Made by a program: the position numbers and the translations under genes. From NCBI GenBank assembly GCA_045592625.1, contig JAZNVC010000001.1, forward strand, positions 136,825 through 200,824: a stretch of 64,000 bases of DNA, written 5' to 3'. This document shows, in pieces, positions 9,918-18,676 of this stretch; position 1 is the stretch's first letter; each line of letters starts with the position of its first letter. The notes beneath the pieces were generated by a model. It was not told the DNA's origin, made no database searches, and saw only the letters and a program-made list of their open reading frames with translations. This DNA is from Acutalibacteraceae bacterium (GTDB taxonomy: Bacteria; Bacillota; Clostridia; Oscillospirales; Acutalibacteraceae).

Positions 9918-10448
9918 TTGAATAAAAAACCTAAAATTATTCTGAAAAGTATATCTGCAACTATAGTTTCCCTTGTTGTAATCTTTGCAGTGCTTATTGC
10001 AGGAGTGCAAATCTTCGGCATAAAGGTTTATACCGTTTTATCGCCTTCAATGGAACCTGAATATAAAACAGGTGCCGTTATATATGTTAAAAAGGTTGAC
10101 CCAAAGGAACTTGAGGTTGGAGACGTTATAACCTTTTCGTCGTTAAATCAAACAACGGTAACACATAGAATTGTGGGCGTAGAAGAAAAAAACGGAGTTC
10201 TTTATTTTGAAACCAAGGGCGACGCCAATAAAAGTGCCGATAGCGGCAGGGTGCATATGAATAACGTGCTGGGCAAACCCATATTTAAAATTTCCTATTT
10301 AGGTTATGCTGCAAGTTTTATTACAAAAAAACCCGGAATCTATTTAGGTATTGCTATAGGAATTATTCTTACAGTACTTGTATTTGTGATTGACTTTATT
10401 ACGGGTGATGAACCCGATAAAAATAAAAAAAGGAGAAAAACAAAATGA
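9918..10448 (+). CDS. sipW: Signal peptidase I, archaeal/ER type (SipW-like)
   Basis: 176 aa with a TTG start after an AGGAG RBS. N-terminal TM segment, catalytic-Ser box LSPSMEP, His box VTHRIV, a GDAN box, and a C-terminal TM segment with a basic tail. Confidence 0.85.
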   Translation: MNKKPKIILKSISATIVSLVVIFAVLIAGVQIFGIKVYTVLSPSMEPEYKTGAVIYVKKVDPKELEVGDVITFSSLNQTTVTHRIVGVEEKNGVLYFETKGDANKSADSGRVHMNNVLGKPIFKISYLGYAASFITKKPGIYLGIAIGIILTVLVFVIDFITGDEPDKNKKRRKTK

Positions 10449-11086
10449 AAAAAATGAAGACAGTACTGCTGTGCATTGGTTTGAGTTTATTGGTTTTTGC
10501 TTCGGTAATGGGGACACTTTCCTATCTTACAGATACAGAAGAAGTTGTTAACACCTTTACCGTAGGTAATGTCGATATAACTCTTGATGAAGCAGATGTA
10601 GATGAACTTGGTGCAGTAGTGGGCACAGAAAGAGTTAAGGAGAATGAATATCACTTAATTCCCGGCGGGGTTTATGTAAAAGACCCAACCGTAACCGTTA
10701 AAAAGGGCAGTGAGGCTTCATATATCCGTATGCTTGTTACCATAAGCGATATGGCTGATATCAAATCGGTTTTCGGAAATGATTTTCTTCCTGAAAATTA
10801 CGTAGAAGGCTATGACAAGGCTGTTTGGAAGTGTGTAAAAATTACCGATAACGGCAATGATACCGCCACCTATGAATTCCGCTATAAAGAATCTGTAGAT
10901 AAGGTTAGTGCAGATAAGGTTTTGGAACCTCTTTTCAAAAAAATAAAGGTTCCCGGTGAAATAAACGGCGAAGAACTTGCCAAAATAAGCGAAATGAAAA
11001 TTTCTGTAGTAGGTAACGCTATACAGAAGGCAGGCTTTGAAAACGAGGATGCTGCTTGGGCAGCTTTTGACCTTCAGATGAATTAA
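10445..11086 (+). CDS. TasA/camelysin-like secreted protein with a SipW-cognate signal peptide (P1)
   Basis: 213 aa. N-terminus ..FASVMGTLSYLTDTEEVVNTFTVGNVDITLDE. The start overlaps the sipW stop (ATGA). Confidence 0.75.
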   Translation: MKKMKTVLLCIGLSLLVFASVMGTLSYLTDTEEVVNTFTVGNVDITLDEADVDELGAVVGTERVKENEYHLIPGGVYVKDPTVTVKKGSEASYIRMLVTISDMADIKSVFGNDFLPENYVEGYDKAVWKCVKITDNGNDTATYEFRYKESVDKVSADKVLEPLFKKIKVPGEINGEELAKISEMKISVVGNAIQKAGFENEDAAWAAFDLQMN

Positions 11087-11102
11087 GAAAGGCGGCAAAA
11101 AT

Positions 11103-11711
11103 ATGAAAAGAAAGCTTTTTACAAAACAGGGTATCTTTAAAACCGTACTGTTAATGCTCAGCGTAATAACACTTGTGTTCAGTATTGTTAGCGGTACTTT
11201 AGCATGGCTTGTTGCCGAAACAAAACCCGTTGTAAATACCTTTACATATGGCGATATCAATATCAATTTAGAGGAAAGCGATACAAACGACGGTGACGGA
11301 GACCCTTATACCAATACCTATCGTATGGTACCGGGAAATCAAATAGAAAAGGACCCAACCGTAACGGTAAAAAAAGACAGCGAAGACTGTTGGCTTTTTG
11401 TGAAAATTGAAAAATCGGTTGACCCCGCTAAATTTGATGATTTTATGGAGTTTACCATTGCTGACGGCTGGACACCCTTAAAGGATGTTGACGGCGTTTA
11501 CTATAGAGCAGTTGACAGTAGTAAGGAGGATATAAAATTCCCCGTACTTAAAGATAACAAAGTAAAGGTTAAAGAAGATGTTACAAAGGAAATGTTTAAT
11601 ACACTTTCCGAAATGCCTACCCTTTCCTTTACCGCTTATGCAGTTCAGCGTGACAGCGAAATAACCGAAATAGATTCAGCCGAAAAGGCTTGGACTATAA
11701 CACAAAAATAA
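11103..11711 (+). CDS. TasA/camelysin-like secreted protein with a SipW-cognate signal peptide (P2)
   Basis: 202 aa. N-terminus ..SGTLAWLVAETKPVVNTFTYGDININLEE. It shares KDPTVTVKK.SE with P1. Confidence 0.75.
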   Translation: MKRKLFTKQGIFKTVLLMLSVITLVFSIVSGTLAWLVAETKPVVNTFTYGDININLEESDTNDGDGDPYTNTYRMVPGNQIEKDPTVTVKKDSEDCWLFVKIEKSVDPAKFDDFMEFTIADGWTPLKDVDGVYYRAVDSSKEDIKFPVLKDNKVKVKEDVTKEMFNTLSEMPTLSFTAYAVQRDSEITEIDSAEKAWTITQK

Positions 11712-11733
11712 TATTTTAAAGGAGTAAAAGAAA

Positions 11734-16842: not shown

Positions 16843-17046
16843 ATGAAACTGCCGATAATAGTGGGCATAACAGTATTTGTTTTGATTTTATCGGTCAGAA
16901 TAACCATTTTTGCAGCAGAAATTAAAGGCGAAATAAAGTATCTTAACAGCGAAATTGCACGATGTTCGGGCAGAGAAAGAAAGTATTATAAAAAGCACAA
17001 AAAAAGACTTTTGCTTTCCTTTCTACCTTTTGTAAGATATAAATAG
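16843..17046 (+). CDS. Small single-pass membrane protein, function unknown
   Basis: 67 aa. N-terminal TM segment (LPIIVGITVFVLILSV) and a Lys/Arg-rich tail. It starts 5 nt after the P5 stop and has no clear RBS. Confidence 0.4.
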   Translation: MKLPIIVGITVFVLILSVRITIFAAEIKGEIKYLNSEIARCSGRERKYYKKHKKRLLLSFLPFVRYK

Positions 17047-17062
17047 AAAGTAGGGTATTGAT

Positions 17063-18490
17063 ATGGGTAAAAAGATTATAAGAACAGTGTTACTTTTTGT
17101 ATCGCTAATAACCCTTATTATGTCCACTGTCAATACCACTCTTTGCTATGTGGCTTCAAAAACCGACACTCTGACTAATATTTTCAAGCCCCAAGATAAA
17201 ATAACAAATGGAATTTCAGTAATAAAAAGGGTAGAGCATCCTTTTGGAAAAGATTACGTAATACCCGAAAATATTGCCTTTGATTTCACTCTTTCTTTTG
17301 GTGCATACTATGCCGAAACAACACTTAAAACAGCACAGGGCGAAATGAAGACCGATAGTAACGGCGACCTTACCGTAAAGGTTAAACCTAATATTCCCTT
17401 TACTGTAGAGGGAATTGACGTAGGAAGCAGCGTTACCATAAAGGAAAACGACTTTTCGGCAGAAGGTTTTGCCAAAAAAGGCGAGGACGAAAAAACCGTT
17501 CTTGTTCCCGAAGTAAGCTTCGTAGAGGCTGAATTTGTAAATACCTATACCCCAAAAGCAACCGACATAAAGGGGATAACCCTAAAAGGCAAAAAGGTGC
17601 TTGAGGGCAGAGACTGGAAAGAAAAAGACTGCTTTTCCTTTCTGTTAGAATATAGAAGTAACGGTCAATGGGTAAAGCTGGATAAACAGACAATAACCTA
17701 TAGTGAAGAAAACTTTAAACCCGAGTTCGATTTCACCAAAGCCATTTCTAAACTCTCCTTTACTATGGCAGGTGAATATGAATTTCGTATGACCGAAGAA
17801 AAGGGCGAACTCAAGGGTATGGTTTACGACGCTACTGTGAACACCTTTTCCCTTTGCGTCACAGACAAAGATATGGACGGACAACTTGAAATTTCCGACG
17901 TAAAAAACGGTGAACATACTACCTCAACCCGATATGAAAACGGATTTTCCATTAACGTTGTCTTTAATAATACCTTTAAACCTCCGGTACCTGAAGACAG
18001 GTCCGTTCATATCTCTGTGACAAAACTCATTACCAATAAAGGTAGTTATAAACGCAGTCCTGAGGGCTTTGAATTTGTGCTTCTTAACAGCGAAACTGCT
18101 GAAGAATATACCGCAAAGACCGATGCAAACGGTGACGGTAAAATAGAGATTACTCTTTCAAATGAGGATATTGACAATACCCTTGTCTTTAAGCTTTATG
18201 AAAAGCATGGCAAAGAAAAGGGCGTGACCTATGACACAAGGGTTTATAAAGTGGAGATTAAGCCCTATTTGAATGAGGATTACGAAATAACAGCAGACTT
18301 CTTTGTTGACGGATTAAAAACAGAGCTGGTTAATGCGGAATTTACCAACATATGTGATATTGATAAACCTGTTAATCCCGATACGAGAATGGATAAGAGC
18401 GTTTATTTCTGGATGCTCCTTGCGTTTATTAGCGGTACGTCCTGTATTGTGATTATAATTACCGATAGATGCAAAAGAAAAACCGAGTGA
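17063..18490 (+). CDS. P6: SipW-cognate-like signal, pilin isopeptide-type domains and a C-terminal membrane anchor
   Basis: 475 aa. N-terminus ..MSTVNTTLCYVASKTDTLTNIFKP. It has two Y.F..TE....G..YD.....V.V-type repeats (GEYEFRMTEEKGELKGMVYDATVNTFSLCVTD and LVFKLYEKHGKEKGVTYDTRVYKVEIKP). C-terminus is VNPDT, a TM segment, then RCKRKTE. Confidence 0.7.
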   Translation: MGKKIIRTVLLFVSLITLIMSTVNTTLCYVASKTDTLTNIFKPQDKITNGISVIKRVEHPFGKDYVIPENIAFDFTLSFGAYYAETTLKTAQGEMKTDSNGDLTVKVKPNIPFTVEGIDVGSSVTIKENDFSAEGFAKKGEDEKTVLVPEVSFVEAEFVNTYTPKATDIKGITLKGKKVLEGRDWKEKDCFSFLLEYRSNGQWVKLDKQTITYSEENFKPEFDFTKAISKLSFTMAGEYEFRMTEEKGELKGMVYDATVNTFSLCVTDKDMDGQLEISDVKNGEHTTSTRYENGFSINVVFNNTFKPPVPEDRSVHISVTKLITNKGSYKRSPEGFEFVLLNSETAEEYTAKTDANGDGKIEITLSNEDIDNTLVFKLYEKHGKEKGVTYDTRVYKVEIKPYLNEDYEITADFFVDGLKTELVNAEFTNICDIDKPVNPDTRMDKSVYFWMLLAFISGTSCIVIIITDRCKRKTE

Positions 18491-18496
18491 TGAAGG

Positions 18497-18676
18497 ATGA
18501 ATAAAAACAAAAAAGAAGAATTTGAAAAATGTGTGGTTTGCGGATGTGTTACTCAAACCCCCGTTGACAGACCGATAAGCAAACGCACCAACTATGTAAT
18601 AGGCGTCGGCGAGGTTTGCAGTAAATGTTTATTGGAGGTTTACTGCAATATAAACCCTTTCGACAATGAACTATGA
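18497..18676 (+). CDS. Small Cys-rich ORF (59 aa), absent from the supplied ORF track
   Basis: My hand translation gives MNKNKKEEFEKCVVCGCVTQTPVDRPISKRTNYVIGVGEVCSKCLLEVYCNINPFDNEL. It has CxxC plus CxxC pairs and starts 6 nt after the P6 stop. The RBS is poor, so it may be translationally coupled. Confidence 0.35.
   Translation: MNKNKKEEFEKCVVCGCVTQTPVDRPISKRTNYVIGVGEVCSKCLLEVYCNINPFDNEL

Follow-up and report, generated by a model that had tools for sequence, protein, structure and literature searches.

We analysed a 64-kb stretch of DNA from an Acutalibacteraceae bacterium (contig JAZNVC010000001.1; hereafter the window, to which all positions refer unless another locus is named) that contains a nine-gene operon headed by sipW, the gene of a SipW-like signal peptidase. 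On balance, the evidence favours the view that these genes specify a cell-anchored surface fibre, of the TasA/BsaA superfamily and subject to phase variation. The view is carried by an Asn-Glu-Lys triad conserved in five proteins of the operon (P1–P5), by a pilin-like sixth protein (P6) that appears to share with them a signal and the strand following it, and by a segment upstream of sipW that bears a promoter-like element and occurs in both orientations within one species-level lineage.

The operon (9918–18676) consists of nine open reading frames (ORFs), all on the plus strand and spaced by −4 to 129 nucleotides (nt), at the coordinates that a preliminary description of this DNA had given (Table 1); no strong promoter or terminator was found in a scan of its interior. 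The same description had placed at its head an archaeal/endoplasmic reticulum-type signal peptidase with SPSMEP, THRIV and GDAN boxes, and all three boxes are indeed present. The protein scores 106.3 bits with TIGR02228 (cut-off 51.85) and shows the Ser and His catalytic boxes, instead of Ser/Lys, that together with this model define the type. Because it scores 116.7 bits with the SipW equivalog model NF046067, below the cut-off of 190, the peptidase is best regarded as SipW-like rather than as an orthologue of the Bacillus enzyme. The proteins that follow it had been described as six consecutive ones with a shared SipW-type N terminus, and this holds: a regular-expression search of the window in six frames for a hydrophobic stretch with G/T-T-L-x-Y/W-L/V and N-x-F/M returned exactly six occurrences, which are the N termini of P1–P6 and lie nowhere else. 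The TIGR04088 model (cut-off 19), by which these signals were to be checked, agrees for P1 (29.5 bits) and P4 (20.1 bits), falls just short for P3 (18.3 bits) and P5 (17.0 bits), and gives no match at E ≤ 0.01 for P2 or P6.

P1 and P2, which had been likened to plain TasA-like subunits, are putative small subunits and paralogues of each other (34% identity, E 6e-22). Profile–profile alignment with hhalign places the whole of P1 (residues 1–213; profile of 47 relatives) onto residues 1–263 of P3 (profile of 44 relatives) with a probability of 99.5% and an E value of 6.5e-23. This full-length match indicates that P1–P5 share one domain of ~215–260 residues, P3–P5 corresponding to the P1 domain plus an extra C-terminal module (C-module). 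The earlier statement that P3–P5 carry the same N-terminal module (N-module) fused to different modules thus stands, and the beta-helix and GLUG-like labels given to the fused parts are weakly supported. The AlphaFold model of P1 is beta-rich with a predicted local distance difference test (pLDDT) value of ~90 over residues 40–213, and its residues 1–39 are disordered, as would be expected of a free donor strand. That of P3 (mean pLDDT 85.5) shows a beta-rich N-module (~33–265) and a low-confidence linker, followed by a beta-solenoid-like run of short strands (~281–512).

Membership of P1–P5 in the TasA superfamily is probable, judging from sequence profiles. Peptidase_M73 (PF12389) matches 36 of the 47 P1-family members at E < 0.01 (best 2.3e-6), and the family sits at the edge of that model. 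Alignment of the P1 profile with a Bacillus subtilis TasA sequence entered by hand extends over 112 columns (E 7e-4, probability 27%) and covers the first half of the fold, pairing GTLAYL with GTWAAF, the donor strands with each other, and PGxxYVKD with PGDKLTKD. The name under which the P1 family is filed by the Joint Genome Institute was rejected as a guide to function: the members are folded proteins of 200–800 residues, and the name does not stand for a tested function.

Three residues point to a known fibre. In BsaA of Clostridium perfringens, residues 28–38 insert into the next subunit during polymerization. In this strand V33 and F37 flank N35, which becomes joined to K74 by an isopeptide bond under catalysis by E56; mutation of any of N35, E56 and K74 abolishes the oligomers that resist sodium dodecyl sulphate (SDS) and heat (Kivimaki et al., PMC11580942). 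P1–P5 carry a V-x-N-x-F/M strand as in BsaA, and all five hold the strand Asn and the acceptor Glu and Lys that characterize subunits of this 'exchange-and-lock' type. N36, E49 and K79 are invariant in the 47 relatives of P1; the 44 relatives of P3 show no variation at E50 and K81, and at least 90% conservation of N37. The P1 residues N36/E49/K79 correspond to BsaA N35/E56/K74 by position and motif only. A wider survey of 85 loci, in which subunits were picked by BLAST and the hydrophobic motif only, independently of the Asn, found this Asn in 149 of 150 small and ~78 of 79 large subunits, the Glu likewise, and the Lys in 137 of the 150 small subunits. The triad, which the preliminary description had missed, makes a covalent exchange-and-lock fibre the likely product of P1–P5 by analogy with BsaA, and it strengthens the idea, plausible in itself, of a SipW-dependent, cell-attached donor-strand fibre. 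One anchor-type protein (P0161) lacks the donor Asn while its partner subunit still has the Asn, Glu and Lys; covariation is uninformative in this case.

P6 was described as carrying a variant of the signal, isopeptide repeats and a C-terminal transmembrane (TM) anchor, and each of these parts is recognizable. It matches FctA with 57.7 bits (cut-off 22.1), TIGR03786 with 58.7 bits over two stretches (cut-off 31.85) and DUF7601 with one domain of 27.2 bits (cut-off 27), and ends in a hydrophobic segment and a basic tail. Three Lys/Glu/Asn sets (K55-E128-N160, K178-E245-N302/303 and K321-E380-N429), one per immunoglobulin-like (Ig-like) domain, are invariant or nearly so in 35 orthologues, as in isopeptide domains of the Spy0128/FctA type. 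Aligned with the P1 profile, P6 is matched over columns 1–40 only, that is, over signal and strand (probability 79.5%), with P1 N36 opposite P6 N39; across the 35 orthologues, F41 and P43 do not vary and N39 is conserved to at least 90%. P6 thus possesses a donor strand but no acceptor domain, following the same logic as TapA.

The C termini of the P6 family align as (A/S/T/V/I)-P-x-T-G, acidic residues, a hydrophobic stretch of about 20 residues and a basic tail, a succession that has the layout of a sortase sorting signal. Close relatives read VPDTG or TPDTG and most orthologues xPPTG, and the (S/P)PxTG motif recognized by Clostridioides difficile SrtB is close to that of the family (PMC4155245, PMC5118464). 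Among related loci, which are designated here by L numbers, L077 has a sortase gene (PF04203, 38.3 bits; 8175–8957 of that locus) directly upstream of sipW, and similar sortase-like ORFs occur in L068 (3192–3974, immediately upstream of sipW) and in L084; the position of the gene in L077 and L068 echoes that of srtB beside the C. perfringens bsa operon. With a tripartite sorting signal in the orthologues and a sortase beside sipW in L077, the proposal that P6 is a 'sortase-independent' membrane base appears doubtful and unsupported for the family.

Upstream of sipW lies an invertible segment of 1.4 kb (8313–9823 with its outer hairpins) that the preliminary description had also missed. It is bounded by 23-bp recombination sites with 8-bp inverted arms (TCGTTTAT/ATAAACGA), two on the left (8347 and 8413) and one on the right (9799), and carries both a promoter-like element and the gene of a tyrosine recombinase (int). 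In the window the promoter-like element (8511–8483) points away from sipW, facing the 3′ terminus of a polymerase gene and two terminator-like hairpins on the minus strand. The left hairpins (8313–8404) appear placed to stop transcription from this outward promoter, that at 9742–9791 would insulate sipW from read-through of int, and the window would accordingly represent the OFF orientation of the switch. L001, a syntenic relative, has the entire segment the other way round, and there this promoter-like element faces sipW, as it does in L086; int lies on the strand opposite to that in the window in L001, L007, L010, L027 and L086. The clearest case is the comparison of L086, the one contig that a metagenome scan with the recombination site returned, with L008, a metagenome-assembled genome (MAG): flanks of 7.4 and 2.2 kb run in the same direction in both, with 98.5% and 97.5% identity respectively, and the intervening 1424 nt from site to site match at 96.5% identity when one of them is reversed. 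The segment is therefore inverted, between inverted sites, in contigs of one species-level lineage. More widely, 20 of 62 loci have int with flanking inverted repeats no farther than 2.6 kb upstream of sipW, 5 of the 20 with int on the opposite strand, and the promoter-like element is divergent from int in most int-bearing loci, its position and direction being conserved. In genomes with three sites the extra site and its hairpin are always on the promoter side, so that four arrangements, and an intermediate containing a terminator, might in principle be formed.

These observations suggest the following mechanism, whose steps we infer by analogy with characterized fibres. SipW would cleave the atypical signal of P1–P6, probably just before the Y/W of G-T-L-x-Y-L, and so bare a short N-terminal strand of the form V-N-x-F/M-T. 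The donor strand of one P1–P5 subunit would insert into the beta-rich acceptor domain of the next, where its Asn would be locked to the acceptor Lys by a spontaneous isopeptide bond catalysed by the conserved Glu, as in BsaA. P1 and P2 would form the plain shaft. P3–P5 may be full subunits that are built in anywhere along the fibre, because they have both strand and acceptor, with C-modules that would display adhesive or enzymatic cargo. P6, having the strand and no acceptor, would be limited to one end, where it may give the first or terminal donor strand like TapA, capping the fibre and tying it to the envelope through its three isopeptide-stabilized Ig-like domains and C-terminal sorting signal; the signal would be of sortase type in most orthologues, and the Gly-to-Arg variant of the window may stay in the membrane. 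Transcription would start from the outward promoter that the invertible segment carries along with its own tyrosine recombinase, and would be OFF in the window. The cleavage site, the co-polymerization of the large subunits, the polarity, the use of a sortase and the activity of the promoter are to be read in the same conditional sense. A cell-attached donor-strand fibre is nonetheless a plausible and the most economical reading of the operon.

The genes concerned belong to a large and recurrent system. P1 has 2357 relatives in a collection clustered at 90%, and a full scan of a metagenome library with hidden Markov models (HMMs) gave 9350 P1-family representatives (clusters at 50% identity); 479 stretches matching the family were found in contigs of one genome per species. 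All named sources are uncultured MAGs of Acutalibacteraceae, Oscillospiraceae or other Clostridia, many of them from the guts of ruminants and deer. The gene order [int]-sipW-small subunit-small subunit-large subunit (one to four copies)-s67-anchor-s59 recurs among 85 fetched loci and in many species-level MAGs. When the 45 loci with at least 9 kb of downstream sequence are counted, large subunits are present in 25, small subunits alone in 20, and a P6-type anchor is recognizable in 16. The small protein s67, with the motif ELKYLNSEI..R..RRRLW.S..PFVKY, is encoded in 20 loci, as a rule immediately ahead of the anchor, and s59, a zinc-ribbon-like four-Cys protein (CxxCG...GxGQxCxxC), in 16 loci directly after it; neither has a family match in Pfam or NCBIfam. 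The nine-gene architecture is therefore not unique, being widespread, with dozens of occurrences in gut MAGs, and partly anticipated in the literature. In L031 the block sipW-T220-T243-T523 occurs twice as a perfect mirror image (W190− beside W190+), which is either an inverted duplication or an assembly artefact.

A number of results weigh against this interpretation. As to the fold, the match of P1 to Peptidase_M73 is restricted to residues 11–52 and reaches 19.3 bits, under the gathering cut-off of 22.5 and short of the protein body over which TasA/camelysin membership would be expected to extend; the same Pfam search gave no Peptidase_M73 match for P2–P5. A TasA-like jelly-roll, that is, a jelly-roll or Ig-like beta-sandwich resembling TasA (5OF1/8AUR) or the archaeal bundling pilins, had been predicted and was not confirmed: when the P1 and P3 models were compared with the Protein Data Bank (PDB) by Foldseek, nothing matched at E ≤ 0.001 and TasA stayed outside the top 50, the best matches being generic beta-sandwiches with TM scores of 0.2–0.4; at the sequence level, P1, P5, P6 and the P1 profile found matches in the PDB at chance level only. 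The TasA-like archaeal bundling pilin 7ueg does appear weakly in both Foldseek lists (rank 8, E 0.027, and rank 18, E 0.059). Since nothing in the fold search was significant, the case for a TasA fold is one of sequence profiles. As to the anchor, the Thr of the sorting motif is invariant in the 35 orthologues of P6, but the next residue is Gly in only ~22 of them and otherwise Arg, Ser, Ala, Asp or Glu; P6 of the window itself reads NPDTR (18376–18390), with Arg for Gly. The sortase motif TLxTC was found nowhere in the window, and no P6-family member matches the NCBIfam models of LPXTG anchors. As to the switch, the promoter at 8483–8511 is a consensus match only, and in the three-site variants L001 and L010, which would be 'ON', a terminator-like hairpin separates the promoter from sipW, so that the assignment of ON and OFF is not simple.

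The points concerning the anchor lend some substance to the view that P6 is not processed by a sortase but stays embedded in the membrane by its C-terminal helix, P3–P5 being alternative tip adhesins, which we nevertheless consider rather unlikely. The Arg is no sequencing error, because an independent metagenome protein (P0121) that is 91% identical to P6 has IPDTR, and the non-Gly PDT variant is a real, lineage-specific trait; a 2130-residue protein encoded downstream has TPDTS, again with no Gly. To this may be added that the TLxTC scan of the 64-kb window found no sortase gene. Sortase motifs ending in Ala, Ser or Asn exist, however, and Arg or Ser after the Thr need not abolish cleavage; the relatives that keep the Gly, together with the acidic residues, TM segment and basic tail, have a canonical sorting layout, and sortase genes stand beside sipW in loci related to this operon. 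In C. perfringens HN13, BsaA oligomers behave as membrane-anchored, not wall-linked, structures (PMC11580942), which fits a membrane-embedded P6. Nor need P3–P5, which had been proposed as alternative adhesive subunits, be confined to the tip of the fibre, since they keep both donor strand and acceptor residues.

The C-modules of the large subunits are mutually unrelated apart from a weak similarity between those of P3 and P4. That of P5 resembles Peptidase_M26_N (E 0.0016) and GLUG (E 0.25), both under the cut-off; P3 and P4 have no Pfam match, and Pfam and NCBIfam gave nothing usable for the C-modules of P3 and P4 or for nine large subunits of close relatives. Annotated relatives of the C-modules bear the labels Pectate_lyase_5, Beta_helix, LRR_5 or DUF285. 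At the DNA level the N-modules of P3–P5 are repeats of 74–88% identity, and the first 24 residues are common to P4 and P5. The loci nearest in P1 and P6 (81–89% identity) have other large subunits (470/748/675, 471/680, 655/615 and 493/484/744/794 residues), without the three C-modules of the window. Conversely, the C-module of P3 (12514–13293) is 98.8% identical to that of the distantly related MAG L050 (compared with 11428–13020 of that locus), whose P1 is 47% and whose P3 N-module is 68% identical to those of the window, which points to recent horizontal exchange of C-terminal cassettes. The G+C fraction also rises over 12–16 kb, to 0.44–0.45 from ~0.39 in the surroundings. Differing modules in close relatives and a near-identical one on a divergent backbone suggest that the C-modules behave as cassettes swapped by recombination and horizontal transfer on a conserved polymerization module.

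P3–P5 could also be independently secreted beta-helix enzymes or adhesins, the N-module serving as an export, carrier or wall-binding domain and the fibre consisting of P1 and P2 only. This is unlikely, even though the annotations of the C-module relatives suit it, 20 of the 45 loci have small subunits only, and the C. perfringens paralogue BsaB forms dimers only and stays out of BsaA oligomers (PMC11580942). BsaB lacks the triad, whereas P3–P5 have it; the P3 N-module is homologous to the whole of P1; and conservation of the strand Asn, Glu and Lys at 90–100% in the 44 P3 relatives is hard to explain for a mere carrier.

It is still less probable that the product is a released biofilm matrix like that of B. 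subtilis TasA and that P6 is an unrelated wall-anchored adhesin using the same operon and peptidase. TasA and BsaA do occur largely as matrix proteins, and P6 is missing from many related loci, as the count of recognizable anchors indicates, but the P6 family conserves the strand exposed by cleavage and aligned to that of P1, and the P6 gene is set between the conserved operon members s67 and s59. In addition, published AlphaFold models have TapA complementing TasA and an LPXTG protein complementing AbpX (PMC9674648; 10.64898/2026.01.04.697558).

Upstream of the switch (6717–8282), the window encodes a small protein resembling sigma-70 region 4 and a DNA polymerase of the Y family; in L001 a helix-turn-helix (HTH) protein and an M78 (ImmA/IrrE-like) peptidase precede this pair (5065–7865 of that locus). 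With their conserved synteny, these genes look like a cassette of the SOS or mobile-element type, and the G+C fraction of the operon is uneven. That the recombinase belongs to an integrated mobile element carrying or abutting the operon, the orientations being fixed rearrangements, is the most improbable of these alternatives, since such cargo-like genes and the uneven composition are set against syntenic flanks in relatives, a flip confined to the 1.4 kb between the 23-bp sites, both orientations within one species-level lineage with flanks 97–98% identical, and the combination of int, inverted repeats and divergent promoter upstream of sipW in 20 of 62 loci of different species.

Beyond ruvX, the window encodes a 2130-residue protein (19389–25781, plus strand) with an AxA signal, a vWA domain, seven FctA and two DUF7601 repeats; its C terminus (25670–25781) consists of TPDTS, a TM segment and a basic tail, non-Gly like that of P6. 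It appears to be a giant fibrillar adhesin. The gene follows ruvX in L005 and L007 and is absent in L001. It was rejected as a member of the operon on account of its ordinary AxA signal, the intervening ruvX and its absence from L001; a functional link is still conceivable, as the bsa operon of C. perfringens includes a vWA protein, BsaC. Elsewhere in the window, a T-box leader (103.8 bits; 31119–31323, minus strand) and a glycine riboswitch aptamer (58.7 bits; 53677–53768, plus strand) are ordinary regulatory RNAs unrelated to the operon.

Table 1. Features of the sipW operon and of the invertible segment upstream of it (window positions; aa, amino acids).
Feature	Position	Strand	Description
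Two terminator-like hairpins	8313–8340, 8381–8404	−	Outside and between the left recombination sites; from terminator scan and repeat search
Recombination site L1	8347–8369	+	Asymmetric 7-bp spacer TACCCAC between 8-bp inverted arms, TCGTTTAT / ATAAATGA
Recombination site L2	8413–8435	+	Second left copy, oriented as L1
Promoter-like element	8483–8511	−	TTGACA-17 nt-(TG)CATAAT; 11/12 consensus positions and extended −10; divergent from recombinase gene
Tyrosine recombinase gene (int)	8634–9734	+	Inside invertible segment; Phage_integrase 101.5 bits and SAM-like N-domain
Hairpin after int	9742–9791	+	Inside segment; 15-bp perfect arms
Recombination site R	9799–9821	−	Inverted relative to L1 and L2
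sipW	9918–10448	+	176 aa, two hydrophobic segments; archaeal/ER-type signal peptidase I
P1	10445–11086	+	213 aa; putative small fibre subunit; SipW-type signal, donor strand VVN36TFT, acceptor domain with E49 and K79
P2	11103–11711	+	202 aa; putative second small subunit, P1 paralogue; donor Asn N45, E57/58, K83
P3	11734–13293	+	519 aa; putative large subunit; P1-type domain ~33–265 (N37, E50, K81), then C-module ~281–519
P4	13337–14896	+	519 aa; putative large subunit; N-module as in P3, different C-module
P5	15026–16837	+	603 aa; putative large subunit; same N-module, third C-module with sub-threshold M26_N/GLUG similarity
s67	16843–17046	+	67 aa; conserved small protein, one TM segment, basic C-terminal motif
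P6	17063–18490	+	475 aa; anchor/nucleator candidate; signal variant, donor strand TLTN39IF, three Ig-like domains, NPDTR, TM segment and basic tail
s59	18497–18676	+	59 aa; four-Cys protein (CxxC...CxxC), without signal peptide
Hairpin with T/A runs	18678–18708	.	Between s59 and convergent ruvX, read from sequence; probable bidirectional terminator and operon end

The general design of such a fibre is already present in recent literature. The assertion that known SipW systems have no anchored subunit overlooked published precedents in TapA, in the LPXTG-bearing BsaB and in the LPXTG anchors of AbpX loci. TapA, whose Ig-like fold is complete, starts TasA filaments with its N-terminal strand and is implicated in their attachment (PMC9674648, PMC10151520). 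In most C. perfringens strains the LPXTG-bearing BsaB, proposed as a wall anchor by the authors of that work, is encoded beside srtB; the same authors point out that BsaA/TasA paralogues share operons with LPxTG proteins, SpaA domains, sortases and signal peptidases, and they suggest heteropolymers (PMC11580942). A Clostridium LPXTG protein has been placed in an AbpX-type fibril by strand complementation with AlphaFold 3 (AF3; bioRxiv 10.64898/2026.01.04.697558).

The C. perfringens bsa operon is the closest of these systems. As with the probable superfamily members of the window, its SipW gene is followed by several TasA-superfamily paralogues with the V-x-N-x-F donor strand and the Asn/Glu/Lys triad; its fibre is cell-associated, as is proposed here; a sortase and an LPXTG-bearing paralogue adjoin it in most strains; and a vWA protein is found near both, as BsaC within the bsa operon and as the 2130-residue vWA/FctA protein beyond ruvX in the window. 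However, the two share no detectable similarity at BLAST level, and the P1 family passes no Pfam model. Unlike bsa, the window operon has five predicted subunits, three of them with large, unrelated and apparently exchangeable C-modules, its candidate anchor is a pilin-type stalk with the strand only rather than a TasA-like paralogue, and it adds two conserved small proteins and a predicted invertible promoter; it is known here from its sequence alone. The tapA-sipW-tasA operon of B. subtilis (Bohning 2022, PMC9674648; Roske 2023, PMC10151520) provides SipW-dependent export and N-terminal donor-strand polymerization as proposed here, and its TapA, which has its own complete Ig-like fold, donates a strand to start the fibre; P6 has the same logic, with a strand and no acceptor. 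TasA lacks the isopeptide triad of P1–P5, though, and TapA the sorting signal and isopeptide stalk of P6; the operon has one subunit type and no cargo modules, and is regulated by SinR instead of DNA inversion.

AbpX-type and archaeal Tafi loci (10.64898/2026.01.04.697558) comprise a dedicated signal peptidase, major and minor subunits, tip proteins and an anchor, of SLH or LPXTG type in Clostridia and a membrane anchor in Tafi. Their peptidase in AbpX loci has ten TM helices and a DUF5305 partner, in contrast to the two TM segments of the SipW of the window, and a pilin-type stalk, cargo-bearing subunits and an invertible switch are not reported for them (10.64898/2026.01.04.697558). With sortase-assembled pili (Spy0128/FctA and SpaA type), the operon shares the FctA/DUF7601 domains, Lys-Glu-Asn sets and candidate LPXTG-like signal of P6, as in a basal pilin, and the fibre would likewise be wholly covalent. 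Unlike those pili, it implies neither a pilin motif nor polymerization by a pilus-specific sortase, its signal peptides are of SipW type, and its subunits would be linked by self-catalysed Asn-Lys bonds after strand insertion. The switch, for its part, recalls Salmonella hin-fljBA, the C. difficile RecV switches and gut invertons, in which short inverted sites flank a promoter whose orientation decides the expression of a surface structure, as is proposed here; a recombinase gene within the inverting DNA is a feature shared with hin. The switch differs from these in its tyrosine-type recombinase, its 8-7-8 bp core site and its predicted control of a SipW fibre operon; in some genomes, a third site and terminator-like hairpin would allow more than two states.

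What is new is the pairing of triad-bearing large subunits with apparently swappable C-terminal modules, and the predicted invertible promoter, with its recombinase gene, upstream of sipW; the locus further departs from the known blueprint in its pilin-like isopeptide stalk anchor with the strand only and in its two small conserved proteins. Taken to its full extent, the evidence would allow a more tentative picture, possible but not the one we would wager on, in which two Gram-positive fibre paradigms are joined in a hybrid: a pilin-type, wall-attached stalk bearing a TasA-type strand would nucleate a self-locking, Asn-Lys cross-linked, modular display polymer with interchangeable cargo (beta-solenoid, pectate-lyase-like, LRR and DUF285), its repertoire reshuffled by recombination and horizontal transfer and its expression set by a multi-site, possibly graded promoter switch, the whole being widespread among uncultured Clostridia of herbivore and human guts.

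If the more general reading of a phase-variable, cell-anchored fibre is correct, a very large family for which no characterized member was found equips never-cultured gut Clostridia with covalent surface fibres, and a defined anchor subunit would answer the question of how TasA/BsaA fibres stay on the cell. The large subunits would be natural examples of enzyme or adhesin display on donor-strand polymers, which would be relevant to engineered living materials and to SpyTag-like chemistries. Lastly, the phase switch would offer a clear regulatory handle; metagenomic data could show it directly and so indicate whether the fibre is expressed in vivo.

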